Shown here in pieces: positions 19,701 through 49,381 of a DNA stretch of 64,000 nt. The first letter of the stretch is position 1, and each line of letters starts with the position of its first letter. This DNA comes from Azolla caroliniana (taxonomy: Eukaryota; Plantae; Polypodiophyta). The stretch is taken from positions 12,648,001 through 12,712,000 of the forward strand of contig JBHGNT010000013.1 of assembly GCA_043228905.1 (NCBI GenBank). Direction: 5' to 3'. The position numbers and the translations under genes were made by a program. The notes below the pieces were generated by a model. It did no database searches, was not told the DNA's origin, and was given only the letters and a program-made list of their open reading frames with translations.

Positions 19701-20870
19701 CGCGGATTCGACAGCTCGAGCGGAGGCCGGAGGACGTAGAGCGAGCCGCGGAGAAACTTCGGGTAGCGAGGATAAGGAACAAAGCCCAGTTCGACCGAAC
19801 ACACCGGCTCCGGCCAAGGAAGACCGAGGAAGGCGACTGGGTGCTCTACGACAGCAACCTCGACAACTAGCACAGGGCCACACGGAAGTTTGCGAGGAGG
19901 TGGTTCGGGCCTTACGTAGTAACAGGCGCCAACGACAATGGAACGTACCATCTCGCAGAGCTCGACGGTACGAGAATGGCGATACCGGTAGCGGGGAAGA
20001 GGATCAAAGCGTTCAAGAAACGACACGACAGTGAGCCGGAGCTAGGGGGCATGGACAGCAACGACGAGCAGCCCGAGGCGGAGGACGAACCGGTAAACGA
20101 GGAATAAAAGCAAGGACCGGTTTTCTCCAGTAGGAACCCAATTTTGGTGCATACCGGTGGATGCGCGGTTAGGTGGGGGCGGATGTCGTGAAGAAAACTG
20201 TCCCCAGGCGCAAACCGTGTATAGCGTGTGTGAACCGGCCCTTACACGTGGGCACGCCCCTTGTTGTATAGTAGATAGGTAGGCACAAAAGTCGAATCCT
20301 AGGTAGCAATATTCTATAGGGAGAATCGAGGAGTATCTCTGTCCGAAAGGACAGAGAATTAATGTGATGTAAACGGGTGAAACGGCCTCCCTCCTTGAGC
20401 TATAAAAGAGAGGGAGACGGGGAGAGAAGGTATCGCGCGCTAGAGGGGACGAAGTGTTGTCGGACTGGGACCGAGCTCTTCTTCTCTGTCGTTCTCCATA
20501 GCTTTCTTTTGCGCAGGTTCTCAGGAGGTTGATTCTGCTCCGTGGAACGCCCGTGTGCTTCCGGCAGAATCTCCATCTTGCTCCCCTGTGTGCGTGGGTG
20601 ATCAGGCGTCGGCATCCATCTCGCCGACCTGATCGGCTGTAACCGTTCGAGTCGTCCGCATACATACAAATACATACATATTTTTATATACATACGCTAG
20701 TGTTCTCAACTCGTGTCTCCTATGTTGATTGGGCCGCGTCCCCGTGCGCTTCTTTGTCTATACGTGTGTGTGAGCGTCTCTCTCTTTCTCCCTCTTTTCT
20801 CACTTATTCCTCGGTCCAAGACCCCAGTGGTCCCGCCTTGTTCTCCACGCACGCGCGTAGTAACTCGACA
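13790..20870 (+). mobile_element. Nested full-length Ty3/gypsy LTR retrotransposon with tRNA-Trp PBS
   Basis: LTRs 13790-14477 and 20184-20870 (TG...CA), PBS TGGTGAACCCGACGTGAA 14483-14500 complementary to the plant tRNA-Trp 3' end, PPT AGGTGGGGGCGGA, TSD ACGG/ACGA. Confidence 0.95.
14522..20107 (+). pseudogene. gag-pol: gag-pol (zinc knuckle, protease, RT, RNase H, integrase) with several stops and frameshifts
   Basis: CMWCDTVGHIWKDC knuckle, LVDHSSEINL protease, DLYSGYDQF and FLDD RT, VDTS RNase H, AYNPEANGKVE integrase, WFGPY motif. Confidence 0.92.
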
Positions 20871-22379
20871 ACGAGCTCCTTGTAGTTGATCCAGGAGGTC
20901 GAAAATCAAAGGTAATGGGTATTTATTTTTTATGATGATTTTGTTGAGAGACCTGTAATCCATGCACATACACAGTGCCCATCTTTCGTTGCCACCAAAA
21001 TGACGGGCACACCGTAAGGTGATTGGTTTGGTCTGATGAATCCCCATGCTTCTAACTTTGGTAATTGTTGTTTTAACTCTGCTAATTGAGCAAAATTCAT
21101 TTGGTAAGGAGCTTTTACAGGTGGTATGCTTCCTGGAATGGTTGGGATTTTATGATCAATTGACCTTTGTGGTGGAAGAGTTTTGGGTAGCTCCGTTGTT
21201 AATACATCCTTGTATTGCTTTAATATTTCCTTCATATTCTTTGCCCTTAGTTCTTCCTTCCTCATTGTTGTTGATGCTTGCAGGGCCGTGCAAAGAAAGA
21301 GTTAACCACCCTTCTTTAAGACTTGATTTGCTACTTTTGTTGTGCAAAGTTTTGTGGTCACGGTTGTTGTTTTTGCCTTTGCATTTCTCCTATGCATATT
21401 TACAATGATGCTTGCCTTCCCATCTTCTTCCCACCATTGGTTAGATAAAAGAGATAGAGAGAAAAAATTAGTCTACTATCTTTGTGGTTACCTTGACTCC
21501 TCCCGTGGTGTCGTGTGCCACTTCTTCAATCTCTTCTTGGTGGAATGGCTCGCCAATCCTAACCTGGCTCTGATACCAAGTATTATACTAATGGCACAAA
21601 ATGAGAGAGAACACTCTTGTATTCAATAGAAATGAAAAGGTAAATGGTAATTACTAATTAATGACCTAGTCCTTCCCCATTGGGAACACCCCTTGAGAAT
21701 CACAACTACTTTAAATAGAATTTTATTGGGAGCTCAAACGTTCGTGAGATGAAACGTTTGTGCTTCCAAGATTTATTTTAATATTCTACTCTTTTATTTT
21801 ATGTAATTGTAATAGTTGTAACACACATAGTTTCCAATCCTAGAAGGGATCAATTACCGCCTTTACAATTGATGACACGCAAAATTATGAATGAACATTA
21901 AACATCATATGCAATTCCTAGAAATGCTTCAAGTGCCACATAGATTGAAAACACAATGTGTAAAGTACAAAGTAATGCACACACAATTACGAAACATTAC
22001 CCAAAAACACTAGAGGTATAACATATATAAGCCACATAAGGTTTTTTTTTAGTTTATAGAGACATGAAGAATATAGAGTGATAAAAAACAATGTGATTTA
22101 CAATAAAACAATCTTGAACTTGACATATATATCTCAAAGAGCACACATGGAACAATCCAAAATGCATATCAATAATGAAATTACTAACAAATTAACATTA
22201 TGTTTGGTTTCATGGATAGACTCATATGAAGCCATAACATTGTTTTTTCTCAAACACATTGATCAAACAAATGGCAACTTATTTTATATTTCTATTTGAA
22301 ATGTAAGTCATCATGTATTCATATATTCTTACCCAAATCAAAATGAAATAAAATAAATCATTTTGTTATGGCAATGTCT

Positions 22380-23450: not shown

Positions 23451-24040
23451 AAATACAGTTTTCACATATATTAGCATATTATTCATAACTACAATCATAG
23501 ATTGACACATGCGTCATATTCGTCATATTCTCCATGCGCCATATTCTTAATATTCGAGAATACCAAATGGCCCCAAGAATATTATAAAACCATTCGTTTT
23601 ACAAAATAAATATGCAAAATATTTATTTATTCATTTTTATATTTAAATAAATTTAATTCACTAAAATAAGAACAATCATTCATTAATGGGTGAAAGCATG
23701 CGAGTGGAAACAATTAGCTATGTCCTTGACATAGCTAATTAGCTATGCAAAAAGCTACCATTGATAAATAGTCATTTTAGTAAAAAGCCATCATTAATAA
23801 ATTAAGTATGCAAAAAACTACCATTGAAAATACTAGAGTGTTTTAATTACATATGTAAATGAGTGCCATAAATGTGCAACATAAATTGATGTGTGCACCA
23901 TAAATGTGTACCATAAATTATATATCGAATTCCTAGGTCCATTATGCATGATCCTTTGCCACATCACGTAGGCCATCTCTAGTTGAGTACTGTGGGTTAG
24001 TTGCTACCACTGTTGCTAAACCCTATCGAGTCCACCTGCC

Positions 24041-24810
24041 GCCACTCTACACTGAGGGGCCGCTACTGTGCGTTCCAAGCATCATCAAAGAGCTGCTCAA
24101 TCTGACGGGGTTCTCTTCTCTGTGACACTCTACACTCAGGGGCCACTACTGTGCATTCCAAGCATCATCAAAGAGCTGTTCAATCTGAGGGGGTTCTCTT
24201 CTCTGTGCCACTCTACACTCAGGGGCCATTACTGTGCGTTCCAAGCATCATCAAAGAGCTGTTCAATCTGAGGGGGTTCTCTTCTCTGTGCCACTCTACA
24301 CTCAGGGGCCATTACTGTGCGTTCCAAGCATCATCAAAGAGCTGTTCAATCTGAGGGGGTTCTCTTCTCTGTGCCACTCTACACTCAGGGGCCGCTGCTG
24401 TGCGTTCGAAGCATCATCAAAGAGCTGTTCAATCTGACGGGGTTCTCTTCTCTTTGCCACTCTACACTCAGGGGTTGCTACTGTGCGTTCCAAGCATAAT
24501 CAAAGAGCTATTCAATCTGACGGGGTTCTCTTCTCTTTTCCACTCTCACTCAGGGGCCGCTACTGTGCGTTTCAAGCATCATTGGTAACTGTTCAATCTG
24601 ACGGGGTTCTCTTCTCTATGCCACTCTATTCTCAAGTGCCTTCTATGTGCGTTTCAAGCATCATCGGTAACTGTTCAATCTGACGGGGTTCTCTCCTCCA
24701 TTGCCATCATTCTATACTCAATTGCCACTACTGTCCAGTCCCGGATTGCTTCCACATTTCGATTTGACGGAGTTCACTCATCCAACGGCAACATTCTACA
24801 CTCAGTTGTT
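24041..24810. repeat. 83-bp tandem repeat, about 9 copies, upstream of the transposase
   Basis: Unit CCACTCTACACTCAGGGGCC...TCTCTTCTCTGTG with period 83; degenerates rightward. Confidence 0.96.
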
Positions 24811-25029
24811 GCCATTGGTCGGTCTTGGATCGCCTCCTCAACTGTTGGATCCAACAGAGTGAAATCCTCTACTGTTCGGTCTTGGATTGCAATAACTTTT
24901 CTGTCTATTGATTATCTTGTGTATTGTTGTGTCTAATCTTGTGTATTGTGTGGAATATTTTTGTGTATTGTTGTTGCCCATAGCCATCTTTAATACTTGT
25001 TTTTTTTTCTGGAAATTTAGGGTTTTAAC

Positions 25030-28000
25030 ATGTCTAGCCAAATGGAAGGGGAAGAAGGGTGTTTAGAATTACCCCTCAATGATCATAAGGATAGGGATGA
25101 TGTTATCAGGACACAACAAGCCATACGAAACTATTGGGCAGAAAAAAAAAGGAAACATCGTCAATTGTTGAAGGATACGAAAGCCACACTCAGTAAAGGT
25201 AAGGATAGTTTAGCTGAGAATGTAAGTAATGCGACTACCATCATAGAGAGAAAGGTTGTAGACTATTTCAATGTTCAAACCAAGCACATCAGCAATGAAG
25301 AAAAGAAGGTAGTACTTTATGGAATATGTAATGATCCATCGATAAAGGACTTAGTTGATTGTGATGGTCTTAATGCAAACATATCATCTATTTTAGTAAA
25401 TAATCTTCGTAATAGTTTCGTATCCATGAGCAGGTCAGAAGATGATCTTGTCTTAAAAAGGTCTAGTCTAATGATGTTACTTAATAGTGATGTTGACGAT
25501 ATAAACATCAGTGAGCTATCTAAGGTAATTGGTGTTAGTAGAAAAACAGTGTACAATACAATGAACCGTATAATTTCCTCGGGTGAAGGAACTAGTCTAC
25601 TAAAGCTAACTACAAGATGTAAGCCAATGACACCCATAACATTTGAAATCAAGGATGTAATCACAATGTTTTGGACTAATGAGAGTAGGGTTTCACCCAA
25701 TAAAAAGGATTTATGCAGGAAACGTGTTGGAAGAAATCAATACGAGGAGCATCCCATTCATCTTCTTGATGTACCTCAGGTATTTACATTTATCTCAACA
25801 TTTGTTTTGACTCTACTCGGAAAGTTAATTAGCTCAGTTAGCAGAAAAGCTAATTAGCTTATCAGTTACATTTACCTCAGTTAGCTACTAGGATCGCTAC
25901 TACATAGGTAACTAGCTACTCTCAATAGTTACTACCATGATAGCTAATTAGCTATTCTCAATAGCTAATTTAGGTACTACCAGATAATTAGCTGTACTGC
26001 TAGCTAGTTAGCTATCATGGTAGCTAGTTAGCTATTTCGTTATTACCAGCTAATTAGCTACTAGGAAAGCTAATTAGCTACCATGATAGCTAATTAGCTA
26101 CTATGATAGCTACTACATAGGTAACTGGCTACTCTCAATAGCTACTACCACGATAGCTAATTAGTTAGGATAGCTAATTAGCCACCATTATAGCTAATTA
26201 GCTACTAGACCAGCTAATTAGCTACCATGATAGCTAATTAGTTACTAGGACAGCTAATTAGCCACCGTGATAGCTAATTAGCTACCATGATAGCTAATTA
26301 GCTACTATACCAGCTAATTAGCTACCATGATAGCTAATTAGTTACTAGGAAAGCTAATCAGCCACCATTATAGCTAATTAGCTACTAGACCAGCTAATTA
26401 GCTACCACGATAGCTAATTAGCTACTAGACCAGCTAATTAGCTACCATGATAGCTAATTAGTTACTAGGAAAGCTAATTAGACACCATGATAGCTAATTA
26501 GCTACTAGACAAGCTAATTAGCTACCATGATAGCTAATTAGTTACTAGGAAAGCTAATTAGCCACCATGATAGCTAATTAGCTACTAGAGCAGCTAATTA
26601 GCTACCATGATAGCTAATTAGCTACTAGGACAACTAATTAGCTACTAGGACAGCTAATTAGCTACCATGATAGCTAATTAGCTACTAGGACAGCTAATTA
26701 GCTACCATGATAGCTAATTAGCTACTAGAATAGCTAATTAGCTACTAGAATAGCTAATTAGCTACTAGAATAGCTAATTAGCTACTAGAATAGCTAATTA
26801 GCTACTAGAATAGCTAATTAGCTACCATGATAGCTAATTAGCTACTACGACAGCTAATTAGCTACCATGATAGCTAATTAGCTACTAGGACAACCAATTA
26901 GCTACTAGGACAGCTAATTAGCTACCATGATAGCTAATTAGCTACTACGACAGCTAATTAGCTACCATGATAGCTAATTAGCTACTAGAATAGCTAATTA
27001 GCTACCATGATAGCTAATTAGCTACTACGACAGCTAATTAACTACCATGATAGCTAATTAGCTACTAGGACAACTAATTAGCTACTAGGACAGCTAATTA
27101 GCTACCATGATAACTAATTAGCTACTAGAATAGCTAACTAGCTACTAGAATAGCTAACTAGCTACTAGAATAGCTAATTAGCTACTAGGATAGCTAGCTA
27201 GTTACGAGAATAACTAATTCCCCTTTATTACGCAGGTCGATTTATTTATTAGGTTCAAACGAATGCATCCAACTATCAAAGTTCAACTACGAACATTCGA
27301 GTCTCTTAAGCCACACTTTGTGAGACGCTTAAAGGATCGATACACATGTTGTTGCATTTACCATGTACAGATGGGTTTTCTGAAGGACTCTGTTAATCTA
27401 CTACGTCACCATAGCGCATCCCTAACTAATACAGTTTGCACATGTGGGTGCCCAATCTGTCGATCAAGCCCGCAAGAGGAGTGTAAATCATCTGAGCACG
27501 TTATCTCTTCCATGAGTTATTTATTAGATTCAATATTGTGTCCGAGAGAATCTGACGCTATCTTCCATATTCATAAATGTGTCATGGGTTTATGTCAAGA
27601 TTGTGGCCCTACTAGATTTAGGTGGTGTCCAAATGAATTGAGTAGTGAAATATTGATCTTTGTGAAGTTATTTGAGTCAGTGAACACCAATTTCGAAGGA
27701 AAGGTGTGTAAAAGAAAGGATCTAGTTCGGAAGATGCTTAAACCAAGGGATTTGGTGTCTCTGTTTGTAGTATCTCTAGGAAAGTTCATTAAACACAACT
27801 TCATTTATTCATAGCAGGCCCATCAGTTTAAGACTTGCATATCTGATTTCCCAAATGATGTAGTAGTCTCAGTAGTAGATTTCACAGAGAATTATACTTT
27901 CAAGCAGCAGAATGAAATTCAATCTATGCATTGGTGTTCAGTTCAGGTAACCATTTTTGTGCACACAACATATTTTCGAGTTTCAGGTGATGTTAAAAAA

Positions 28001-29077
28001 GTAATTCATTTCTTTATTTCCGATGATAAGAAGCATGATACCTTGTTCGTCCAACACTGTTTTAAGTTACATTGGCAGTGGTTATTAGCTCAACGTTTGG
28101 AGCTTACTCAACATTGGGTCTGGTCTGACGGAGCTGCGTCACAATTCAAGGCTCGACGTCCATTTTATTTTGTGGGGAGGTATCCTGCTATAACAGGTTT
28201 GGAGATGAGATGGAATTTTTTTGGGTCTGGCCATGGTAAAGGTGAACATGATGGTGCAGGGGCTGTTATAAAGCGGGCACTTACCCATGAACAACTAAAG
28301 ACAGATGGTGTGCACATGAATTGTGCATCACATGTAGTTGAATTTTTAAGAACAAATATGTCGATGAGTGCCACAGGTGTTTATTCCTCGCAAGTTCGAG
28401 ATATCAAACGTGAATTTTGGGAAGTGAAGATAGATGAAATAAATAGGGAGAAGACCTGGGAGTGCCAAGGAATTCCCGAATTGCGATCTCTGCATGCTGT
28501 TCGCGGTTATTCCAGGTTGGATGGTCATTGTATTGCGGTTAGAGAATTGACTTGTTTTTGCTTCCATTGTGTGCAGGGAAATTGGAGATATTGTCTAAAC
28601 AAAGCATACATTCAGAATTGGGAGTATCACACTCTGAATGATAAGGAAGCAGTTGATGGAGAAACAGGGCAGAATGCTGACTTCACATATGAGGGACTTG
28701 GAGATACTTTGAGTGATGTCCTGAACGTTGGGGATAACTTCGCTGTAAATGCTGAAGAAGGCAATTCAGAGGGTGCTGATTTCTATATATTAAAGTGCAC
28801 GGTTAGTAAACAGTGTGCAAGGCAGAATATTGTAGATGCATGGGGAAATTTTGTATCTGCCGGGACATTCTACATCGAAGGCATTTTTTATGCAAAACTA
28901 GATGACTACGAATATGTGTACAGGCTGTTAGAAGACAAACCAGCGGCGTATATGTACTCTCATTTGGTCAGATGCATCAACGTCCCAATGTCAGAATACA
29001 ATAGCTGCTCCGGTTTATACACTGTTGGTGCTAATGTGTATGAATGTATTTACAATAGTATGCCATGGAATTTGTAG
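25030..29077 (+). CDS. Sola2-like DDD transposase, 2 exons (25030-25779, 27236-29077), about 863 codons, one premature TAG at 27812
   Basis: Phase-0 GT-AG intron joins ...DVPQ/VDLF... in frame. Cys-rich region (CCCIYH, CxCxxC) and motifs VVDFTENY..QNEIQSMHW, SDDKKHD, WSDGAASQFK, FFGSGHGKGEHDGAG. Confidence 0.85.
25850..27215. repeat. Satellite of palindrome TAGCTAATTAGCTA (about 20-bp period) in the transposase intron
   Basis: 14-bp perfect palindrome plus 6-nt spacers (CCATGA, CTAGGA, CTAGAA) repeated dozens of times. Confidence 0.97.
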
Positions 29078-29446
29078 CTACAAGTAGCACTTACCATGTT
29101 CTCTTGTAAAACAAACATGTATTTCGCGAAAACAGATCAATAAATTCGTTTGGAATCAATTTCTTGTATACAGTCTGCTTTCTGTGCTTCTTTCTCAATA
29201 AAATCATGTCTTTTTTGTTAAGTTTTAAGTTATAAGTTATAGCAAAATAGTCATCAGTAGCTAATTAGCTGTACAAATGCAGCTAATTAGCTGTACAAAT
29301 GCAGCTAATTAGCTGTCAATAGCTAAATAGTCATCAATAGAATGAAATCAACAATCTGCAACATATTCCTCAAATTACACAGTAGATAAGTACAGTGGGA
29401 ACAAGTAATTAAATTCTTCATTGAATAATGTCATCTCTTTACATAT

Positions 29447-32400
29447 TTATAAATTACCATTGGAAATGTCTACAAATCTCCTATAAACAACTAAGCTCTT
29501 GCTAGTCAGTGGAACGAGTCTACATATATTATCCGCATATTGAGCTCGGTATGGAGTCCACAACCATGCACCTAGTTAGCAGCTCACTGTTTGCACCAGG
29601 TACTGTTCAGGCATTTCCTCGGGTAGAATGAGACAGCATCTCCGAATATTGAAGTAGTGTCGGAAATGTTCTGTATCCAAAATCAATGTATTGTCAGCAT
29701 TATATTCAGGCCAAGTAGCCCAAAAATCAAAAAGCCTCTTGAATCTTGCAGCTTCCATCTGCTCACAATTTTCTCGTGCCCATTGACCTTTAAAACGACT
29801 TTGCCATTTTGGGAAGAATCTTGCCAAACACTTCCACACATCTGATTTTGGTTTTTCACTCCAAATAAACAAATCGAAGTACTCCACAGCCCACTCTAGA
29901 AACTGATTTGCGTCCCTCCTTGGCTGCATATATCTCACACTCATCAAGACTTTATCAAGCTCCAAGATCAAGGCTCTTCGCTCGACTTCTAGTGGTTTAG
30001 GTTTCCATTCCTGAAACTGAGCCGCTGTTACACCATTTTCTGGTAGGATACGATCAATCTCAATCAGCTCAGGTTCGGCTGACACAACTGGTGTCCTTTT
30101 CCTCTTTAAACCCCTAGTCGACTGTGTTGGGCCTAGCTTCACATTCTGGTGCTCTTGTTTTGTCGACTTAGTTATCAATCCTTGGATTACCTCAGTGCAT
30201 GTAGCTACTGTTCTGCTCGATATCAGTCCACTGGTATCACATGTTGCATCTACCTGCAACACCAAGTCATCCGTGCTACATGCTGCATCTACCTGCAACA
30301 CCAAGTCATCCGTGCTACATGCTGTATCTACCTGCAACACCAAGTCATCCGTGCTACATGCTGCATCTACCTGCAACACCAAGTCATCCGTGCTACATGC
30401 TGTATCTACCTGCAACACCAAGTCATCCGTGCTACATGCTTGATCAACTTGTGTGACCAGATCACTTGTGTCAGTTGCTACATCTACTTTCAAGATGGGG
30501 CCCTTTAAACATGCCGCAACATCAACAGTATCCACACTGCCATTGGCCTTACGAGCAATAGAATCAAACCCTTTAGACTCTGCAACATCAGAAAACACCA
30601 ACATATTCACACTCACAAAGTAACTACTAGTCTCACAAAACAATATCCTGAACATCAAAGAGTTTTAGTCATAGAACAACACTCTTCAAATTATCTTGGA
30701 AAAACATCATAGAGTTCCATTACATAATGTGGATCAAGCAACAACCAATCTGAGGTTTTACTTGTCCAACAGGATAGTAAAACTTCATAAAACCCTAGCA
30801 AAATCCCTAAGCTAACAATCATATCCAACTAAACAGTATTTCGCTCCACTACGTCTGGGCCCCTTGACCGAGTAACTGGTCTTGTTCCCGATCGTGGCCC
30901 CTTCTTCAGCCTTTTTCTGGTTGGTTCCCCATTTAGCCTTGCTTCTAGGACCCAATGCGCAAGTGTGTCCTCCTCCGACAACCTTCCCATCGCCTCAGTA
31001 GCTAATTGCACATCAGCCGTTTCTTGAACTAGCTTTTCAAGTACAGAGGGATCTGTTTGGACATTTTCAGTAGTTGGGCTCGGTGGGGTGGAATCAAGGT
31101 CTTGAGACTCGAAGAAATGTTGCATCAAGTGTTCATAAACACTGTTGTTGTGAACCTCAGTTTTACATGTTGTTTCCACTATTTCATGGCATTTCACATC
31201 GTTGCCTAATTCAGTACACTGTTCCAAAAGAATAGGGTGCAGCTGATCTGAAGGAGATGTGATAGCAGGACTCTTACTTTCAGCCACATTGGCAGTAGTA
31301 TCCTCATCTGTTGCAGCATCATCAGCACCAGACACATCATGTGCCGTCCTTAATCCACAAGATTCTACAATAACATGACAGTTATTTAGGATAGCTAATT
31401 AGCTACTTTACTAAACTATGGTAGAAGCTAGGATAGCTAATTAGCTAGTACGATAGCTAATTAGCTAGTATGATAGCTAATTAGGTACTTTACTCAACTA
31501 TGGTAGTAGTTAGGATAGCTAATTAGGTACTTTACTCAACTATGGTAGTAGTTAGGATAGCTTATTAGCTACTAGGACAGCTAATTAGCTGCCAGTAGCT
31601 AATTAGCTACTAGGATAGCTAATTAGCTGCCAGTAGCTAATTAGCTACTAGGATAGCTTATTAGCTACTTTACACAACTATGGCAGTAGCTACTAGGATA
31701 GCTAATTCGCTAGGATAGCTAATTCGCTAGTAGGATAGCTAATTAGTTGCCAGCAGCTAATTAGCTAGTAGGATAGCTAATTAGCTAGTAGGATAGCTAA
31801 TTAGCTAGTAGGATAGCTAATTAGCTACTAGGATAGCTAATTAGTTGCCAGTAGCTAATTAGCTAGTAGGATAGCTAATTAGGTACTTTACTCAACTATG
31901 GTAGTAGCTAATTAGCTAGTAGGATAGCTAATTAGGTACTTTACTCAACTATGGTAGTAGCTAATTAGCTAGTAGGATAGCTAATTAGGTACTTTACTCA
32001 ACTATGGTAGTAGCTAATTAGCTAGTAGGATAGCTAATTAGCTACTAGGATAGCTAATTAGCTGCTAGTAGCTAATTAGCTACTAGGATAGCTTATTAGC
32101 TACTTTACACAACTATGGCAGTAACTAATTAGTTACTAGGATAGCTAATTAGTTGCCAGTGGCTAATTAGCTAGTAGGATACCTAATTAGCTTTTTTACA
32201 CAACTATAGTACTAGCTAATTAGCTAGTACCATAGCTAATTACCTACTAGGATAGCTAATTAGCTAGTAGGATAGCTTATTAGCTACTTTACACAACTAT
32301 AGTAGTAGCTAGGATAGCTAATTAGCTACTATGGTAGCTAATTAGCTACTTTACTCAACTATGGTAGTAGCTAGGATAGCTAATTAGCTACTTTACTAAC

Positions 32401-35099
32401 TATGGTAGTAGCTAGGATAGCTAATTAGCTACTTTACTAACTATGGTGGTAGCTAGGATAGCTAATTAGCTACAATGAAAGCTAATTAGCTACTTTCTCA
32501 ACTATGTAGTAGCTAGGATAGCTTATTAGCTACTAGGACAGCTAATTAGCTGCCAGTATCTAATTAGCTACTAGGATAGCTAATTAGCTGCCAGTAGCTA
32601 ATTAGCTACTAGGATAGCTTATTAGCTACTTTACACAACTATGTCAGTAGCTAATTAGCTACTATGATAGCTAATTAGCTAGTAGGATAGCTAATTAGCT
32701 TTTTTACACAACTATGGTACTAGCTAATTAGCTAGTACCATAGCTAACTAGCTACTAGGATAGCTTATTAGCTACTTTACACAACTATGTCAGTAGCTAA
32801 TTAGCTACTATGATAGCTAATTAGCTAGTAGGATAGCTAATTAGCTAGTAGGATAGCTAATTAGTTGCCAGTAGCTAATTAGCTAGTAGGATAGCTAATT
32901 AGCTTTTTTACACAACTATGGTACTAGCTAATTAGCTAGTACCATAGCTAACTAGCTACTAGGATAGCTTATTAGCTACTTTACACAACTATGGCAGTAG
33001 CTAATTAGTTACTAGGATAGCTAATTAGTTGCCAGTGGCTAATTAGCTAGTAGGATAGCTATTTAGCTTTTTTACACAACTATGGTACTAGGATAGCTAA
33101 TTAGCTAGTAGCTCATTAGCTGCCAGTAGCTAATTAGCTAGTAGGATAGCTAATTAGAAAAGACTAAGCTTATTAGCTACAGTATGGTATACCTGTTTGT
33201 TTTCTCCACTCATTTGGTAGAGTTGTACTGCAATCTCCCAAACAGAATGCAGCAATTCGACAGGCATGTTGAAAACAAAGCAGATGGTATGTGTGGTTGC
33301 ATGGTTGTAGGTGAACCAACAAAGACGCAGTTTTGTCCTCCACACCTAACCCGCAAGCGATGCAACGTGCTTGAACTGTCAATAAATCATTTTCTGGTTC
33401 TACTTCATTTGGTAAGGGAGCAAGAATGTTCAGGTCCAAATCCTGTCTGGTCCTTACCATTCCCTCCACAAAATGTAGCTTCTTCTTAAGGCAGCTAACT
33501 ACCTGTTCTTGATGAATGTATTGTTCCTTCAACGCAACAGAGAAATTTACCGATTAATTATTCTTGTTGTTGAAAGATACACCAACTTTGCTCAGGAATC
33601 GTTAACTTACTTGAAGCTTATCCAAATTGTAATCTGCAACAGTATTTACACCTAGAAGGTCCAGGTTCATTGAAAGAACCTGGATCTCTATTTGCAGTTC
33701 TATTTTACGCTGGGGATCCAGTGGCCCCTCTAATTCAAGCTCCTGTTGCGCAACCTATTCCAGATAATGCTTGATTAGCACATTTTACCCGTTATTTATA
33801 ACACAATCACATACCAGCAAAACAATAGTTACCTGAATCTTATTTCTAATTGTTGTAACAACAGAAGTAACTTTGCTCTCCATTGCAGAAGCCATTGTGG
33901 CTTTCTCTAAATCAGTCTTAAAAAATGCCAATGTCTCACAGGCTTCATGGACATTTTTTAGCATATAGCTAACCAATGTCTCACCTGTATCATCGACATT
34001 GGCTTTCCTTGGGTGTCGGTGTGGTGTATGCCCCTGGTCTTGCTGGGAGTCGGCAGTTGCATCAACAGCTGCCATGCTCCAAAATCTATCTATTTTTTGT
34101 GCCAAGGTCCCCATCTTTCGGCATCTTTTTACCGATGCCTCACCATAGACTGCCCAAGCTACCCTATACATTTCAGGGTCTCTAGATTCCTTCGCTGTTT
34201 TGCAGTACTCATATGCAAATGCTCTAGCAAATGAAACTGACAACTCATTGTTGACTGGGATCTCCTGATGAACTTTCTGGTGCAGTCTCATGCAGTCATC
34301 GTACAAGTCGGCTCGTACATGCTTCAGCTTGACCTTGCCTTTGACTCTAGGCACTGTATATACTGTCATCCAGTCTATATCACTGATCAATTTATCACTT
34401 AGGACAGCAGGGTCAACACCCTCGAGTGACAGACCATAGGTGTTGTGGAAGTCCTCCTTTGTCTCACAAAATTTTGCGAAGTTTAGCACTCTCGTATACG
34501 GAGGAACGAGCCATCTGAAATATCATTTCAGAAATCAGAAATAGTGCAAAATCAGAATATGTGAGAATCAAAAACCCCAATCAACAACAACAAAAATGGT
34601 GCAAAATCTTTAACTTAGCAAATCAGAAACCCTAATCATAATTTGTATTCAGAAATTTGAAATCAGAAACCCTAATCAAAATCTGTAATCAGAAGTTTGA
34701 AATCAGAAACCCTAATCAAAATCTGTAATCAGAAGTTTGTAACCAGAAACCTTATTCAGAAATTCTAATCAGAAATTTATAATCAAAATCCCTAATCAGA
34801 AATTTCAATCAGAAACCCTAATAAAAAATTTCAATCACAAACCCTAATCAGAAATCCTAAGCAGAAATTTATAAACAAAAACCCTATTCAGAAATTCTAA
34901 TTTGTAATCAAAATTTGTAACCAGAAACCCTATTCAGAAATTCTAATCAGAAATTTATAATCAAAAACCCTAATCAGAAATTTCAATCACAAACCCTAAT
35001 CAGAAATTTCAATCACAAACCGTAATCACTAAAGACAGGATTAAACACAAAAAAAGTAATATAAACACACCTGTTGCTACTCCCCGATTTGCGAGACAT
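29447..35099 (-). CDS. Multi-exon transposon cargo gene: N-terminal unknown domain, helical/coiled segment, RING-like finger, 13-aa repeats, degenerate FCP1/NIF (HAD) phosphatase-like domain
   Basis: Phase-compatible GT-AG exons 35099-35071, 34514-33833, 33742-33611, about 33526-33193, 31364-31278, 30579-29447 (TAA at 29576 looks premature). CIAC..PCNHTYHLLC..C..C; LILELDKVL..FL..FDLFIWS..W.RENC..FKRL..W..YNADNTLILD. Confidence 0.68.
30237..30441 (-). repeat. 39-bp coding tandem repeat (TDDLVLQVD[T/A]ACS) x5
   Basis: Near-perfect in-frame repeat in ORF 29576-30658. Confidence 0.95.
31390..33180. repeat. Second TAGCTAATTAGCTA satellite, in the cargo-gene intron
   Basis: Same palindrome with spacers GTAGGA, CTAGGA and CTTTACTCAACTATGGTAG. 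Confidence 0.97.
34621..35030. repeat. Telo-box-containing (AAACCCTAAT) tandem repeats in the first intron of the cargo gene
   Basis: More than 10 copies of CAGAAACCCTAATC-like units with about 26-31 bp period. Confidence 0.9.
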
Positions 35100-38000
35100 C
35101 CTTGTATGGGACTCCAAGGACTTCGCCCTATTCGATTTTGGGGAAATATGAATCGGCACCAAAGTTCAGACAGTAGTCAAAAATAAAAAACAAATGTTTG
35201 GGGTTTCTGTAACTGAAACATACCTGGACGATGATCGAGCGGGTTCTGTGTTGTAGCTCTCAATCTGCAATGTCGATTTTTTGCTATTGCGGGAGCTACG
35301 TCTGCGTTCGTGCTCTGAGTACTCCATCTGCGTTCAAAATCAGACTTAGGCTAAACAGGAAATTGATGACATTGAAGTCGACCTTAGATGATGGTGATAT
35401 TCCCCAAGTTCCACTACGTCTGAAACAGAAGTTCAAATATTTGAGTTTTTTCATAAATTAGTTTTTCAAATATTTGATTTTCCCACAAGAAAGACTAGCT
35501 AAACAAATAGCTAATTAGCTATGGCCATTTTAGTAGCTAATTAGCTATAATAGTGTTTCCACTCGCATGCTTTTACCCTGTCATGATTATAAAAATATGA
35601 TTAGTATTGTCATGTATCGAGACCGAACCATGTCGGTTCGGTCCCAAGTCGAACCAAGACACATCAAGAAAGCACTAGAGTTAGTTAGAGGTTGAATCAA
35701 GAATGTAACTAAAGGAACATAAATGTATAAATAGAGCGAATGATGAATGGAAACGAGAGGAGAATTTGATTCTAAGTTGTGTACATCACATTGGTGGAGA
35801 AGATGGGCAATTCATAAAAAGTTGCCGTTGTTGCAGAACAGAGATCTGGAACAAGTCGCTTCCATAGCAAAACAGTGAGCCCAAATCACGCAATTGTGCA
35901 ACAAATTTGCGCACAGAGATGCAAAAATCAGACTTCGATAGCAACATGAGTATGTAGCCGGAGTTTGTGGAACAACATTCATCAAGCGCTGCAAATGACC
36001 AAATGTTTCAAGCCATAACTACCATGATGATGCAGGTAAATCATACAAATCAAACACTAATGAATTGGTTAACCAATCAGTCACAGTTAACAGCCAAACC
36101 TGAGAAACAAAAAGGTTCAAGAATGTGTCCGCAATCTTTCTCTGGACTTCCAACGGAGGACATTCTGGCCTGGTTGGATCATTTCGAGAATGTAGTAGGA
36201 TATCATGAGTGAGATGATAGGCAGAAAGCACTCGAGCTTCGCACGGTTGTAGAGCATGTGGCTGCAACCTGTTCATCCAGTAGCCTGAAGAGATAAAACG
36301 CGATTGGCCATACCTACACGAGCAATTAGTGCAGACATTCACCAACAATGACGTCACTCAAACAACACTGCAATAGTTGGACACTCTACACCAACAGCCA
36401 CCTGAACCAGTGGCACAATTTCCGGTCAAGTTAAAGCAATTATTGTTAAGGGTAGATCCACATATGAAAGAGACTATGAAACTCTATTTCTTACTACCTC
36501 AATTATGCCATGATATATCCAGGCGAGTGAAAGATCAAGGACCAACAACATTTCAAATGGTGGTACAGATTGCGTAACGCATAGAGTCTCCAGGCTACAT
36601 CGAATTGCAACGTGCACCTATACAATCACAACAAATTAGCCAAAAAATTCCAATGGAACCCACAGTAACTCCAATGGAGATTGATGTGCAAAATGCTCAG
36701 TTTAATACAAAAAAGAACTTATCAGATTGTGACAGCCAAGGAAGACCATGATGTTTCTATTGCAAATCGTATGGGCACATAAAGAAACATTGTAGAAAAT
36801 TTGCAGCATCAAAGCATCATTAGAATGCACAGATACATCTAGCAGATTCAACTTCACTCGCCGAAGTACCGGGAAACGGCAACACTACATGTTGACGAAA
36901 GAGCAACTATCGCACTTTCAGGCCGCTACCTCTTCCAGTCGCATTGTTTGTTCCACGATGGCACGCATTCATAACCAACCTATGAAACATTATTAGATTC
37001 AGGAAGTACAATTTCATCAATTAGTTTAGATTTAGTAAATTCATTGCACTTACCCACATCTAGTGCACCCCTTATTAATATCGTTTTTGGAGATAAACAA
37101 AAACTGTATCAGTCATCAACTCATGCACACTGCACATTCGTACTAGCACAACACACATTCGTACATTCATTGTATGTACTGCCAAAACAACTTTTTTCTT
37201 TAACATGAGGATGTGATTGGTTTGTGAAGCATGGCGCTCAGCTGCATTATGAGGTTCGTCCTACCTCATAATAAACCATTCACCACGATCCCCTTACTTA
37301 GCGCACCACATGTTAGTACACAGGTCATCCATACACAGATCCATGTCAAACCATTAAAGTCATGTCTAGCAGATCTACGACACTTACTCAAGTCGTTTCC
37401 ATCAATTTTCTGTAAGACTAAAAAAATAGCATAAGTAAATCTACCAGTTCAACATACCATTCTGACAACCGATGCTCCTCTAGTTCGGATGGCAACGTGG
37501 CGGTGATCCCCTCTCGACCACCAAAAGATCGCCACAGTAGTCCAAGATATGCTGGAAAAATATATTATTGAGCCATCAACTAGTCAATGGGTATCAAAAC
37601 CCCATTTAGTTTGCAAAAGAAGATGGATCATTCCGGTTTTGCATCGATTTCAGGCAGTTAAATAAGTTGACGAACCATGACAGGTACCCACTTCCTAGGA
37701 TTGACGACTTGCTAGACCAGTTAGGACATTCCAAATATTTCACATCCTTGGACCTGGCTTCTGGCGACTGGCAGATTCCGCTATGCAAAGAAGACAAGCA
37801 TAAAACAACATTTCGGACACAACACGGACTGTATCAGTTTAAGCACATGCCATTTGGACTATCAAATGTTGGCAGCACATTTCAGAGGATGGCAAACAAT
37901 ATTTTCCAAGACTTGATTTTTCAAGGTGTTGTTTTGGTCTATCTAGATGACATATTGATTCACACAGATAGCTGGCCAAAACACATTAAGATATTACGTG

Positions 38001-38449
38001 AAGTCCTCCTCCGCATTCAAAAATACAACCTGCTTTTGCAATTCAGAAAATGCAAGTGGGGTGCAACAACAATACGATTTTTAGGGTTCATGATATCAGA
38101 ACAAGGAATACAACTAGATTCAGCGAAGACACGAACTGTCACGGAATATCTGAAGCCATCGAACATCAAGTCCCTACAGAGTTTTCTAGGATTAGTGAAT
38201 TTTTCACTAAGGTTTGTTCCCCGTCTAGCAACAATTACAACTCCTTTATGGAACTTATTAAAGAAGGATCAACCATACCAGTGGACTGAGGAGTGCAAGA
38301 AAAGTTTTTAGACAATCAAACAATTAATTACCTCAGTAGCAACATTAGCATTCCCTGATTTCAACAAGATTTTGCGTCTACAAACAGATGCTTCCAATTT
38401 TGGAATTGGGGTAGTCCTTTTGCAACAACATGACAATGATAGTTGGCAC

Positions 38450-38734
38450 TGAGGAGAATATGCGGAATAATGCTCGGCCACAACCGAGTCTTCAATCACT
38501 TCATTGAGAATTACAATCACAGAAATGGGAATGTAGAGATAGATGCACGTATACATCAAACACTCAAAGAGAGTACACAATATGTTTACATGGAAAAACC
38601 CTGATAGGGGAAAAACCACGGGAGCCCACAGACTCCAAACAATCACTATGTAAAGATTACAGTAATAGGTCATAGAGGCAATGACCTTGTGCTCTCAATC
38701 TTCGCCAATAGGTGGTTACAACAGAGACTGTTCA

Positions 38735-38822
<88 letters not shown>

Positions 38823-39140
38823 TACGCTCTATACAACAATTACACCAATAAATCTATACAATATTAATGACAACACAATGATACCCCCTTACATCCACAT
38901 TGTTTTCCCTAGGTCATATTTATACTAATATGAATTTCGGGCTATTTACAAATATAGCCACAATGGGCTAACAGAAACATATTTACATATATGTCCCTTC
39001 ATCCGGTGAGAGGTTCTCACCTAGGTTGCGTCATCCGGTTCTTACCGGGTGTTCCTTGCCGGGTACTCATCATCCGGTTCTCACCGGGTCTTCCGTTGTT
39101 GGGTACTCATATCCCATCCGGAGGGACCGAAATCCTAACA
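38450..39140 (-). mobile_element. Solo LTR inserted in RNase H, with (CT)n tract
   Basis: TG...CA ends, TSD GGCAC/AGCAC; removal restores NDSWH|PIAYISRAL. Related to the LTR at 1-496. Confidence 0.9.
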
Positions 39141-40519
39141 AGCACCCGATTGCCTACATCAGCCGCGCACTAACAAAATCAGAGCAAAATTATTCAACAA
39201 CTGAAAAGGATTTTTTGGCCGTAGTATGGTCGTTTCAGAAATTCCATCCATACCTACACGGCACAACGGTGCAGGTGGAGAAAAATCATCAGCCATTGAT
39301 ATCCCTAATTCAGAAGACACAACCACCACGAAGACTACTTCGTTGGGCTCTGGCTTTGCAAGAATACAAATTCACGATGATCTATAGACATGGCCAATCT
39401 AATGTCGTGGCAGATGCCCTCTCACGGATGGAATATCAAGCTGCTCAAGTAAGTGTGACTGATCTTCCTCTACATCAACATCAAATAAAATAGATGCAAC
39501 AACAAGACCCCACAATAAAAAAAATTATCTTACAAATTCAGGCAAGTCATGATGCACAATTAAACCGAAATTTTATCATGATTGACAATGTTCTATATTA
39601 TGTATGCTAGGGATGTCCACCACAATTGTATGTCCCTGAAGCATTGCGAGTGACATACCTTGACTTCTATCACAACCACCAACTATCTGGTCATTTCGGT
39701 TTCCATAAACTTCTCCATCGAATACGCTCCATGTACTATTGGCCGAAGTTGTGACAATCCATATCGGCGTTCCTCCAAGCATGTCCCACGTGTCAGGCTG
39801 TGAAGAATCCACAATCCACTGGCGGATCACTGACACCGATCACTGTGAAAGAACCATTTGAGATGGTTGGTTGGGACCTCATGGGGCCATTTCTAGTTTC
39901 ACTCTAGGGTAACCGATACATATTAGTGATCACAGAATACCTAACTTGTTGGTGTGAGGTCGTTGCTCTACCTGATTCAACGGCAAGTGTTGTCCATAGG
40001 ACAAAAATATAAAATACAAAATATGTAAACTCGCCGGTAGGTAGAAAAGTAGGTGAGGAAATAGGTAGAACTAAAATAGTCGAGTTTTTGAGCCCTCACA
40101 ATCAGCCGACAACTCGGCTCTGTCTAAAGAAGAAAACTATATAAACCGAGATTTGCATACCCCGAGAAGGAGAGATACCTAGATTAGTTAGCAGGATTAA
40201 TATCGTAGCACGGAGCTCTGCACAAAATTATTTCCGGCCGAGAGTCGTGTACTGTATTCACTGTGAGCTTTCTCATTTAATATAAATCTCGTTGTTACTG
40301 TTTCTTCATCTGTGTATTCTTCCCGTACTCATAAACCGAGCTACGTCTATGTCTACCGGGTTGTAGCTAGTGTACGCTCCCTGTTCCCCTAACATCTTCT
40401 CGGTGTAGAAGAAGCCTCCATGTAACACGTTTGCCTGTGGGCTCATCGAAGGTGTTTTCTCCAGAAACGGTTAACACAATTTGGCACGCCCATTTACAAC
40501 TGTAAGGTCATAGCGAACT

Positions 40520-43500
40520 ATGTCGGAGGCAAACCTAAGCCGCCATTACGGCGCCCAATCGCATCACGCGGTCTCGGCCACCCGCCCGACGCCCTGAGCC
40601 AGTCAAAGGAACTTCCGACTCAGCGGCCCACCGGTTGCAATCCTTGCCACCCGATACCCAATCGCGAGTTGATTCCGAACCGATCTCCCCGCCAAGCACT
40701 CCAGAGGTCACCCGACCTGACCCTAACCCATTTCCGGCTTTACCTAAAGACCCGATCTCAATATCGTGCCTTACCCTTACCCACGATATACAGATGGCCC
40801 TGACGCGGAATCGCACACCCGTGCTTTCGTGTCCACATGGCAGGCCAACAACTCGACGTAGTTGCTTGATGGTATTCCCGCCTCGACGTGGGGAGGTCAC
40901 AACGTTCCAAGACGTCCGAACAAAGTTTCTAGAATTATTTCCGGCAATTCTTTTCCATGAGCTAAGAACCTCACGAGACGGTTGCCTAGTTCATGATCCG
41001 ATTTCAGGATCTCTATCGACAACTGGCCGACGATGTCTCTGCACATCACATTCCGAATACCTTCCTTTCCAGCCTACGGAAGCCTCTACAGATGACCCTC
41101 GCACTTACCAACTTCTCTAACCAGACAATCGAGCAAGTCATCGCACACGTCCTCACCATCGATCGAACAGAGCATAGCACAGCTTTCTCCATGGGCTCTT
41201 TGCAAAGCACCCTTCCTCAGGAGGACAATCGTTTCCAACAAGCCCTCCAATGCACAGCCTGATCGAGCTGGGGCCATCTGGCTCTTGAGTGCCCTCACCG
41301 GCCACATTGTTCAGTCCCGATCTCACACGATCGAACAATGTGAATACAACATGCTCAACCACACAACGACGGCTCCGGTTCGCTAGATCGAGCCTCAAAA
41401 TACATACTCACGGCAGGACGAACGTCAAGTCTACCGACATCGGGATAACGAGCAACCACGATGCCCAGACCATCAGCGCCGCGACGACGACTACCGCTGC
41501 AACGACGATTACCGCCGCAACGACGACCACGACTGCCACGACAACCGCAAGAGATCGGACGACCGCCGTGACCAATATAGAGCAAACGACGAGTATGACC
41601 GGTACGATCAACGGTATTCACGAAACAATAGAAGAAACTCTTATAGAGGTTCGCGAAACAATCGATGGCATAACGACAATCGTCGTCGGGACCCTCCTCC
41701 AAATGTACCACACAACTCTCTTCCCCATAACGTGCCACGAGCCAACACACCTACACAAGCGGCCGGGAACCACTCACACCTTCTCCCACACACTGAGCAC
41801 GGTGACACCAGCAACTCGGCATCAGTTACCTGCTTTAAGTGTAACCAACCCGGCCACTACGCTACCCAATGCCCAACCAGGGACCACGGCAAGGCCCCGA
41901 CCGTGAATATTATTATGGTCGACGTTCAACACATCACTACACGCAGCAAAACTTAGGCCATCAAATGGCAAGTACAAGATGACATCCGACAAACATCCAA
42001 GGAATGAATTGACACCGCCAACAAAAGCAACGTGGAGCGGATGCACACAGAGATGCAGGATGTGACCATCGGAGCACCACAGTCCACAGGACCATCCACC
42101 GCGGCAGAAGATGACCATCTGTGGGACGCCCTTACCAGTTCCAGGATCTCGCTGCCATTGCATAAGTTTTTACCGCTTATGCCACGCTTTTGGGATACCT
42201 TGGCTACGCTCACGATTAACGACAAATCAGTCGTACCCGCTGTTAACCTGACAGAGCTAGGGACGGGCCCACCCATCATGGATTCCCAGAATTCAGCCAT
42301 GAAAATCATGATTAAGGGACGCGAACTTCATGGATGCATAATCAACGGTGGCTCCGGCGTGAACGTCATCAGCGAGGCCACATGGCACACACTTGATTTG
42401 AACCAATGGGAACCTTGCCCCTTTTGTCTTCGGATGACCGATCAGCGATCGGTTCGCCCCATAGGGTTAATCCGCCACCTTGACTTCACGTTAGGAGGCC
42501 ACATGTTCACTATCTCGACACTCGTATTATGCCTCAAAGCTTCGGGCGCCTACCCAACGCTGCTTGGATGACCCTGGCTGCGCACAACAAATATTAAGCA
42601 ACATTGGCAGCGAAATATGATCTCTTTCCGCCTGGGGAAGACCAAGGTATGGATAATAACAGAAGAACACCTAACCACACCCCACAACACCACATTCTTA
42701 TACACGGAAGGGGTACACATGCTCGATGGGTTAGCTGACGACGAGGTGAATGACTTCCTGGAAGATCATCCCACTATCATACCCCTCTTCGAAATAGATG
42801 CCATCTCGGCCTTTGGCACACCCCCAAACGAGGATGTCACGAAAGATTCACTTCCCCAGGACGAGCCAGATTCAACAACTAGTACGGAATTATGACATGC
42901 TCGGAACGCGTTTGAATGCGAACTCGCCATCTCCCAGCGAGTCAAAGCATCAACGCTCAAGTCACTCAACCTCGGCTCCGACGAGAACCCGCGTACACTA
43001 CAAATCACTAACAACTTACCATCCGACGAACGGTTAGCCCTCATACGCCTACTCACGGATTATCAGGATGTATTCGCATGGTCTTACACTTATATGAAGG
43101 GATTGGATCCCCAATATTACCTGACACTCGGCCGGTCCAACAACGACGATACCGTATGAACCCCAACTACGCGGCTAAGGTCAAAGAGGAGATCGACAAG
43201 CTCCTCCGATTAGGTTTTATATGCCCAATAAAAAGAGCCACATGGTTAAGCCCAATAGTCGTCGTCCCCAAGAAAAACGGGAAAATCCGTGTTTGCATTG
43301 ATTACCGCAAAATCAATGCCGCGACAGTCACGGATGGGTTTCCTCTTCCGTTCACGGATAGTGTCCTCAACACGGTGGCTGGTCATGAATGCTATAGTTT
43401 TCTCCATGGGTTCAATGGCTATAACCAAATCAGAATGCACCCGGACGATCAGGAGAAAACGACGTTTGTCACGGAATGGGGTGTCTTCGTGGACGAGGTA

Positions 43501-45770: not shown

Positions 45771-46279
45771 ATGACCTACCCACCAAAATAATATATTAGG
45801 AATAGTGTTAGCATTTAAATTAGCCTTACCTAAACTACCTAACAAATCACCCCAAATCACGATATTTTCTTAGGCGCACAAACTAGTCACCTTCACATTA
45901 AAATAGAATATTTAAAGGAACATGCACACCTCACAAGGCATAGGACTCCTGTGATGTGTGGCCATAATACCTTATTATGGCAGCAACAACCAAGAATCTA
46001 AAGGATCTTCTCCCTACACAAAATCCTAGGCGGTCACATAAAAGAAGCTACCCCGCATACAACGCGCCCACTCACACAGAAGCTTTCTTGCCTTCACAAC
46101 CTTCAAGCTCCCAAGCTCTCTCTCGTTCTCATCGCTCCCGCAAACAGGCCTTCTCTTGCCCTCCTAGCCCTTGCCCAAAACAACGGTTTCCTCCCCAACA
46201 ATCTTCTTCCATCTCTCTATCTCACCCTCGTCTCAACGCTCCCCCCCACTCTCCCTGTCAGCAAACCTTCGAGTCCACC

Positions 46280-49200: not shown

Positions 49201-49381
49201 AACCGAGCAACAAACTACGACCACAACCCTGCCTAAATTGGAACCAACAGAGGGTGGTCTACGTGACGTCATAGTCATCCCGGACTCGGCAGCAAAACCC
49301 CCATCACCAACCCACCTTCCCAGCAGCCTGACCAACCCCACGCCCTGGAGGATATCCTCAGCAGATTGTATAAAAGGGTAA
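46280..49381 (+). pseudogene. Extra sense ORF downstream of pol: plant-transposon-protein-like domain, TQT cluster, long coiled coil
   Basis: Fragments 46335-47147 (EGDKVDWGIII), 47238-48029 and 48170-49381 (E/Q/K-rich heptads) joined across frameshifts and stops. Confidence 0.7.

Follow-up and report, generated by a model that had tools for sequence, protein, structure and literature searches.

The 64,000-nucleotide stretch of the Azolla caroliniana genome analyzed here (contig JBHGNT010000013.1, positions 12,648,001 to 12,712,000 of the forward strand; referred to below as the window) contains an element that, by the features tested, is a Sola2-type cut-and-paste DNA transposon and neither a VANDAL nor an Spm element. 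Within its terminal inverted repeats (TIRs), a transposase gene faces a second gene tail to tail, and a short motif specific to the family, here termed family A, recurs at the two ends, in the space separating the genes and within each large intron. The two-gene anatomy, the age of the second gene, the selection acting on it and the family-specific motifs are well supported. It is proposed, as a good hypothesis, that the second protein would act through this motif against silencing by the host.

Two-Gene Anatomy of the Element

The first-pass annotation of the window had described 25-bp TIRs enclosing two convergent, cleanly spliced genes with one premature stop each, four noncoding repeat arrays, and a 14-bp palindrome marking both ends, the region between the genes and both large introns. 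The outline was recovered: the left and right TIRs are identical at 24 of 25 bases, the stops are located at codon 443 of the transposase (TAG, 27812-27814) and codon 945 of the second gene (in exon 7, 29576-29578), and the 83-bp, 20-bp, 20/38/53-bp and 13/40-bp arrays are all present. Both stop positions are occupied by sense codons in other copies. The splicing was confirmed in part. Exons 1-4 of the second gene, and hence introns 1-3, are joined in one transcript-like contig from run X1, which derives from another organism, is approximately 95% alike and is RNA by assumption only. Introns 4-6 and the transposase intron, bridged by no contig in the run search, are predicted only, and intron 6 has a weak donor site. 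Regarding the palindrome, it was verified at the two ends and within each large intron, while the intergenic region displays only a 12-bp core, three times. The 20-bp and 20/38/53-bp arrays are built of palindromes; the 83-bp and 13/40-bp arrays lack them.

The TIR opens with GGG, and the 5' ends of the family A element read GGGT; the end motif of Sola2 elements is 5'-GRG. In the window copy, the target-site duplication is absent, with TAAT on the left (23684-23687) versus TGTC on the right (past 35578), and its loss is likely the result of a later rearrangement. Elsewhere in the family, 4-bp duplications are perfect in 10/10 full-length and 12/12 shorter copies. Assembly artefact was ruled out by the many copies with different flanks and duplications.

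Age and Conservation of the Second Gene

A metagenome scan provided 80 loci, 24 of which extend 3 kb or more past the transposase on its downstream side. In 13 of these long loci, the N-terminal domain (N-domain) and/or the RING-like finger of the second protein was matched at E<0.01, always downstream and on the opposite strand, and eight of the 13 (six non-redundant) lie outside the profile training sets. The N-domains of distant loci, in which transposase identity is 30-47%, could be linked with those of ferns by profile comparison (E 2e-5 and 8e-5 over 99-115 columns). These distant loci are likely moss-type, because unnamed database proteins of the same identity range group with a Ceratodon protein; the tree behind this label consists of database proteins, and the metagenome loci are not among its members. 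A convergent NIF domain was observed in two shorter fern-type loci, and the phosphatase-like domain is present in family A and two fern-type relatives. Related elements, when checked for the cargo and arrays described at first pass, do carry the second gene, with motif arrays of their own in the fern-type clade. It should be noted that the label "cargo" understates the second gene, which is an old gene fixed in the lineage. Separately, three more distant transposases (L064, L076, L078) have no second-gene match in 3.8-5 kb downstream, and in L078 a 16-bp near-palindromic repeat lies upstream.

Selection was estimated from the ratio of nonsynonymous to synonymous substitutions (dN/dS) between the consensuses of a young subfamily (11-16 copies per segment) and an older subfamily (7-22 copies) of family A. 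The ratio is 0.16 for the N-domain (p 2e-8), 0.15 for exon 4, 0.30 for the RING-like finger and 0.19 for the NIF domain, compared with 0.16 for the transposase core. It is relaxed in the linkers (0.51-1.28), and one coiled-coil stretch gave 0.64, which was not significant. These values indicate that the second gene is under purifying selection and maintained during transposition. A recent, neutral capture of a host fragment, named at first pass among the refuting outcomes, was thus rejected on the basis of dN/dS and of the same arrangement in distant elements. Between families, N-domain identity is 13-31% versus 56-67% for the catalytic core (nine between-family pairs).

Methylated copies are expected to accumulate an excess of transitions at CG and CHG sites. 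In young copies, private transitions amount to 0.008-0.010 per CG/CHG site versus 0.0004 at A/T, approximately 20-fold, a pattern as expected if the copies were methylated by the host.

Family-Specific Motifs and Repeat Arrays

The exact 14-bp palindrome occurs 60 times in the window, always inside the element, and was absent from each of 100 shuffles. Most copies are intronic, 25 of them lying within the transposase gene and 32 within intron 5 of the second gene; of the remaining three, one belongs to the left end and two to the right. Across 229 units from six arrays and two subfamilies, aligned with the central 8 positions of the core as anchor, the 14-bp core is 84-99% conserved per position, compared with approximately 40-75% for the flanks. 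Spacers (4, 5, 6, 8, 12, 19 bp) differ in sequence as well as in length from array to array and from one subfamily to the other, and the isolated subterminal and intergenic copies retain the same core amid unrelated spacers. The arrays also vary in length, from 46 to 99 12-mers per near-identical family A copy. In the older subfamily the intron array has the same core as in young family A with other spacers, and both intronic arrays are composed of the same higher-order unit, implying sequence exchange between them.

The motif differs from family to family. Family A contains 87 copies of its own 12-mer and family B, a second family in the same genome, contains none; for AGTACT the counts are 53 in B and 6 in A. 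The AGTACT-based motif of family B is present at both ends and in introns, and its core GTAC lies inside the TIR. Four further motifs in all were recognized in fern-type loci (L022, L023, L025, L026/L027), each in the transposase intron and again downstream; those of L022 and L023 are non-palindromic with the same multi-site pattern. Element ends were not found by TIR search in the long metagenome loci, which limits the check for subterminal copies of the motif to families A and B.

Within the second gene, intron 2 houses the 13/40-bp array. This array contains AAACCCTA, which we take to be telobox-like, and a host factor site at this array is possible. In the diverged locus L034, a 28-bp repeat with AACCCTAAT occupies the same intron as the AAACCCTA array.

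Domains of the Second Protein

The second gene is modelled with seven exons on the minus strand and 987 codons, encoding in succession the N-domain, a predicted coiled coil, a RING-H2-like finger, an acidic linker and a NIF/FCP1-like domain. The N-domain has 140 relatives at E<=0.001, and its structure model is mostly helical with a predicted local distance difference test score (pLDDT) of 94.9. Comparison with solved sequences returned coiled-coil noise only, and the ESM Atlas gave no usable match. The N-domain may bear a likeness to PMD/DUF1985 (LGL..G near the start, W near the end); genome searches for both families came back empty, as did their controls. DUF1985 and DUF287 were detected in 0/40 aligned members at E<=0.1 and in 0/5 further N-domain proteins at E<=10, a search that remote homology below the reach of hidden Markov models would escape.

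The RING-H2-like finger possesses eight C3H2C3 ligands, the last pair being spaced by 3, and this pattern is kept across fern- and moss-type relatives; the Pfam match is below cut-off (E 0.098-0.27). By contrast, the NIF domain (PF03031) scored 27.2 bits against a cut-off of 21.8 (E 3.6e-6), and 55.3 bits in L025. The FCP1/SCP-type catalytic motif is DxDx(T/V). At this position the window protein reads E-L-D-K-V, and its relatives P0179, L025 and L028 read D-L-N-G-V/L. The phosphatase-like domain lacks this motif and is predicted to be inactive.

The Adiantum protein P0179 (37% identity) has the same domain order as the second protein, and Adiantum was the source of 6/10 related proteins looked up, the other 4 having no name. 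In five database proteins (P0149, P0154, P0225, P0245, P0257), the N-domain is fused to gag, fasciclin or other pieces; these proteins are likely gene-prediction chimeras in repeat-rich DNA. Genome searches with P0008, P0018, L023 DNA and P0158 returned only family A or the older subfamily among the matches listed; these matches neither reveal nor rule out a copy of the second gene standing alone in the host genome. A complex prediction of transposase parts with the N-domain scored 0.00 without alignments and with an uncertain partner fold, giving no evidence either way.

The Transposase

The transposase comprises 863 codons from two exons. Its HTH-like (helix-turn-helix-like) stretch in exon 1 matched Pfam HTH_11 at E 5.6e-5, under the curated cut-off. 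The Sola2 motif series is present as DF(A/T)ENYTF, SDGAASQFK and WNFFGSGHGKGEHDGAGAVIKR, by visual comparison with the available alignment of PMC3627910 (Additional file 10), in which the motifs read DF.ENY..., SDG..QYK and W.FFATSHGK..CDG.GG..KR. The predicted catalytic residues are D465, D548 and D589. In the structure model, an RNase H-like core (pLDDT 81.7; best Foldseek E 1e-3) superimposed on integrase and transposase cores with Z 8.2-9.3 and a root-mean-square deviation (rmsd) of approximately 3 A over 134-175 aligned residues. The transposase is not Mutator-like: no Pfam family was found for it (P0001) at E<=10, and the Sola2 motifs and 4-bp duplication are present instead. A lack of Pfam matches is stated for Sola cores in PMC5751038.

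The C-terminal 120 residues resembled nine BAH-bearing chains with middling, consistent Z scores of 6.0-6.6 (rmsd 2.5-4.2 A, 79-97 residues), and this stretch is under selection (dN/dS 0.18). Such a BAH-like tail, predicted from structure comparison, could read histone marks and thereby steer insertion or activity. Named relatives of the transposase come from moss, liverwort, conifers and ferns, and more distantly from animals; the FastTree tree contained search hits only and served as a guide.

Copies, Subfamilies and Surroundings

Copies were searched for in the 523-Mb assembly containing the window. Transposase exon 2 gave 684 first-look candidates, the 40 best-scored matches being 99-100% identical, the N-terminal exon of the second gene gave 683, and the TIR has 552 exact matches. 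Together with the TIRs and the 4-bp duplications, these hundreds of copies demonstrate the mobility of the family. Both reading frames are open in 5/10 full-length copies. Among the first 100 TIR matches listed (first four contigs), 31 inward-facing pairs closer than 30 kb were obtained, spanning 3.6-24.6 kb, with no miniature derivative among them. Six derivatives shorter than 9 kb (L121-L126) all retain the N-domain exon and both ends while lacking part or all of the catalytic exon or of transposase exon 1; they are too few to weigh against the bias of internal deletion. One young copy (L003-L004, L128; G000:C8:21284000-21305000) is situated between fragments of the older subfamily. Two old, rearranged copies were also observed, L143:9614-9964 and L156:8241-9891, one with its right end doubled, the other with its second gene running into an inverted left end.

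Family B (L101-L102, G000:C1:12488560-12501677) is a young Sola2-type element of 13.1 kb with a 27-bp TIR and a 4-bp duplication in 6/6 complete copies. Its layout corresponds to that of family A, with a second gene encoding the N-domain, coiled coil and RING. In the 3' part of this gene, no NIF-like stretch was recognized by eye, and no relatives of its N-domain with greater length were found among 91 candidates.

The window copy carries a single 255-bp unit at 29037-29301, which spans the 3' end of the transposase together with the intergenic cluster of motifs, where most young copies have at least one extra repeat. In the right flank (35579-35860), a repeat with ends resembling long terminal repeats begins approximately 26 bases past the element. 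By visual inspection, 14000-21000, 36000-50000 and 61000-64000 of the window are occupied by the remains of retrotransposons, with frames resembling gag, reverse transcriptase and integrase, and no host gene was evident among window frames of at least 200 codons. The coordinates of all features are collected in Table 1.

Table 1. Features of the family A element, in window positions.
Feature	Position	Strand	Remarks
Sola2-type element, family A	23688..35578		11,891 bp; dead copy of young high-copy family
Left TIR	23688..23712	+	25 bp; same start in 10/10 other copies
Left subterminal motif	23713..23745		half-site touching TIR and one full palindrome (23732-23745)
83-bp tandem array, 5' of transposase	24041..24698	+	8 copies; no palindrome
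Transposase exon 1	25030..25779	+	HTH-like stretch, residues 147-185 (~25468-25584)
Transposase intron	25780..27235		predicted; carries palindrome array of 20-bp units
20-bp array, transposase intron	26048-27219		57 cores within 2 mismatches, 25 exact
Transposase exon 2	27236..29078	+	Cys/His region, then RNase H-fold core
Transposase C-terminal domain, predicted BAH-like	28688..29044	+	from structure comparison
Intergenic 22-bp repeat	29259..29316		three copies of 12-bp core; no full 14-mer
Second gene exon 7	29447..30577	-	39-bp coding repeat 30239-30440; NIF/FCP1-like domain ~29974-29450
Second gene exon 6	30853..31364	-	acidic linker; donor site uncertain
Second gene intron 5	31365..33192		palindrome array; 4-, 6-, 19-bp spacers
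20/38/53-bp array, second gene intron 5	~31386-33157		74 cores within 2 mismatches, 32 exact
Second gene exon 5	33193..33526	-	coiled-coil end and RING-H2-like finger (~33376-33194)
Second gene exon 4	33611..33754	-	predicted coiled coil
Second gene exon 3	33833..34514	-	N-domain ~34489-34076 (~135 residues), then coiled-coil start
13/40-bp array, second gene intron 2	34620..35028		9 copies of AAACCCTA; no palindrome
Second gene exon 2	35071..35127	-	
Second gene exon 1	35224..35327	-	from predicted ATG
Right subterminal motif	35508..35547		two full 14-bp palindromes
Right TIR	35554..35578	-	25 bp

Comparison with Known Systems

The window element has the DDD motif order, short TIRs and 4-bp duplication in common with described Sola2 elements (PMC3627910; PMC12973397 Table S2). 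Sola elements occur in mosses and ferns (PMC10741241, PMC6786969), where four clusters, 9.9-11.2 kb long and flanked by 4-bp duplications, are catalogued as recently active, three with GGGTG TIRs; one catalogued moss TIR has its first 11 bases in common with the left TIR of the window element, and similar plant elements are labelled Sola1, Sola2 or both (PMC12973397 Table S2). The available parts of PMC3627910 and PMC12973397 Table S2 contain no mention of a convergent gene with N-domain, coiled coil, RING and NIF, of motif arrays or of a BAH-like tail. In the literature searched, no description of the second gene or the arrays was found; the 2009 Sola paper, Repbase and the sequences and Table S6 of PMC12973397 may hold one. 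The initial view that Sola elements are transposase-only and confined mainly to animals and protists proved too narrow, in light of Fanzor1 as cargo of amoebozoan Sola2 (PMC3627910), a ParB-bearing Sola1 (PMC12477816) and the 10-11-kb moss and fern Sola elements (PMC12973397). The ParB-bearing element, Sola1-1_Ec32 of Ectocarpus, resembles the present one as a giant Sola with an opposite-strand accessory gene, the product of which has been proposed to bind the element encoding it and to modify it epigenetically. It differs in belonging to Sola1 and in its accessory protein, a ParB-like and DNA amino-methyltransferase protein unrelated to the second protein, and palindromes are not mentioned in the text (PMC12477816). 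The second gene's four long coding stretches yielded neither of these two domains in a Pfam scan. Accessory genes do occur in the Sola superfamily, as Fanzor in Sola2 and as ParB-methyltransferase in Sola1.

En/Spm elements have CACTA termini and a 3-bp duplication, unlike the GGGT termini and 4-bp duplication of the window family. The likeness to their TnpA consists of an element-encoded second protein and clustered, family-specific motifs with copies beside the termini. TnpA contains tandem helix-turn-helix motifs of transposase origin, works at the termini and is apparently restricted to flowering plants (10.64898/2026.08.24.746577); by comparison, the N-domain of the second protein has no solved-fold match and most motif copies are internal. 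A parallel in layout is offered by VANDAL elements, which have a separate accessory gene, VANC, and a short motif tandemly amplified in introns, intergenic and terminal DNA (PMC5735166, PMC10398659). Moreover, VANDAL motifs differ among related families, VANC diverges faster than VANA, and VANC binds in introns (PMC5735166), whereas TnpA and the AtMu1 transposase bind at element ends (10.64898/2026.08.24.746577). VANDAL elements belong to the Mutator-like superfamily and have degenerate TIRs, compared with near-perfect ones here, and VANC contains DUF1985 and DUF287, neither of which was detected in the second gene. Furthermore, binding and demethylation by VANC have been demonstrated (PMC5735166, PMC10398659), while for the second protein they are inferred.

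Proposed Mechanism of Motif Recognition

It is tentatively proposed that the second protein binds the motif of its own element through the N-domain and keeps the element expressed against host silencing, in the manner of VANC and TnpA. The N-domain would be the reader of the motif, the coiled coil would dimerize it on the palindrome, and the dense intronic arrays would confer specificity for the own family. The RING-like finger, a predicted ubiquitin ligase, and the phosphatase-like domain may serve as effectors on chromatin or RNA polymerase II. This proposal is favored because most sites are internal, the motifs are family-specific, and the N-domain diverges fast and is nevertheless selected, which is the VANC pattern.

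Several observations weigh against it. The N-domain has no Pfam family and no solved-fold match (no Foldseek hit at E<=0.001, best Z 2.6), blanks which do not establish a new fold, and its charge is only mildly positive (median +2 over 37 sequences). Its rapid divergence could mean weaker constraint over long times, and exchange between arrays could homogenize the core without selection. No trace of the second gene was detected in 10 of the 24 long loci and only a weak one in another, many of the loci being decayed copies. In the likely moss-type loci with a second gene, repeats are present with no clear motif common to separate arrays, and one of four control stretches in the shared-motif test also gave a shared 8-mer. 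Regarding methylation, differences between the subfamily consensuses are still biased 3.6-fold towards CG/CHG over CHH, compared with approximately 6.5-7-fold in dead copies, indicating that active lineages did not fully escape, and a clean footprint of escape was not found in these differences. Finally, since transposase, second gene and motif are passed on as one unit, co-variation cannot tell which protein reads the motif.

The motif may instead be bound by the transposase, at subterminal sites near the TIRs, with the intronic arrays recruiting it in cis or serving self-activation and the second protein having another role. The half-site that touches the left TIR in family A, the GTAC core inside the TIR of family B, and the HTH-like stretch and BAH-like tail of the transposase all fit such binding. 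There is also a precedent in AtMu1c, the transposase of which alone binds, hypomethylates and activates its own family, although its binding is reported at TIRs (10.64898/2026.08.24.746577). We regard this reading as a serious rival, yet less probable than the proposal above: more than 130 internal sites versus one or two per end would presumably compete with the ends, and a selected, always-linked second gene would be left unexplained. It seems unlikely that the second protein binds the motif for transposition, through synapsis of the ends or loading of the transposase, as a counterpart of MURB of MuDR or of the second proteins of Harbinger elements, which are transposition helpers. Such a function would suit the motif flanking both TIRs in families A and B and the co-inherited, tail-to-tail genes. 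Moreover, no pair shorter than 3.6 kb occurs among the 31 TIR pairs from the matches listed, which suggests a cis requirement for internal sequence, and contact between MURA and MURB has been demonstrated (PMC12973397). On the other hand, synapsis of ends should need no large intronic arrays, the RING-like and phosphatase-like domains would point to regulation, and the available part of PMC3627910 describes no partner of this kind for the aligned Sola2 transposases of animals and amoebozoans. Because both genes and the motif are co-inherited, sequence comparison cannot separate these two readings from self-activation by the second protein.

That the arrays are bound by neither element protein, arising through slippage or gene conversion of an A/T-rich palindrome or representing host-factor sites while the second gene acts independently of the motif, appears improbable. 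The variable array length among near-identical copies and the exchange between the two intronic arrays of the older subfamily would be explained in this way. Exchange of this kind can be seeded by palindromes; moreover, the palindrome is missing from two of the four arrays, and the arrays of likely moss-type loci have no clear motif in common. However, the isolated subterminal and intergenic copies retain the core beside unrelated spacers, the non-palindromic motifs of L022 and L023 follow the same multi-site pattern, and a motif of its own for each family in one genome would be unexpected under a single host factor.

If self-activation by the second protein holds, a wider picture may be drawn, which as a whole must be considered doubtful. 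Land-plant Sola2 elements would represent a third independent self-activation system, in ferns and mosses, in which a domain without known fold reads an intronic, family-specific motif and brings a RING ligase to it. In some ferns, a dead phosphatase-like domain of the type acting on the C-terminal domain of RNA polymerase II would shield the polymerase from repressive dephosphorylation, and the transposase would read chromatin via its BAH-like tail. Several protein-motif pairs would then operate per genome without cross-talk.

Implications

Sequence-specific self-activation of transposons has been shown only for a few flowering-plant elements, VANDAL, Spm and AtMu1 (PMC5735166; 10.64898/2026.08.24.746577). 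If the proposed mechanism is true, this strategy would have arisen independently in another superfamily, common to ferns and likely mosses, by means of a domain without known fold. That one genome harbors two young families, each with a motif of its own and with intact genes, makes a clean swap comparison possible. An anti-silencing role, if true, would also be relevant to the abundance of Sola elements in some fern genomes, and would supply new pairs of protein and motif with which plant genes could be activated in a targeted way. Even without such a role, the conserved second gene alters the definition and annotation of plant Sola2 elements, and many "hypothetical proteins" of fern genomes are pieces of this gene.

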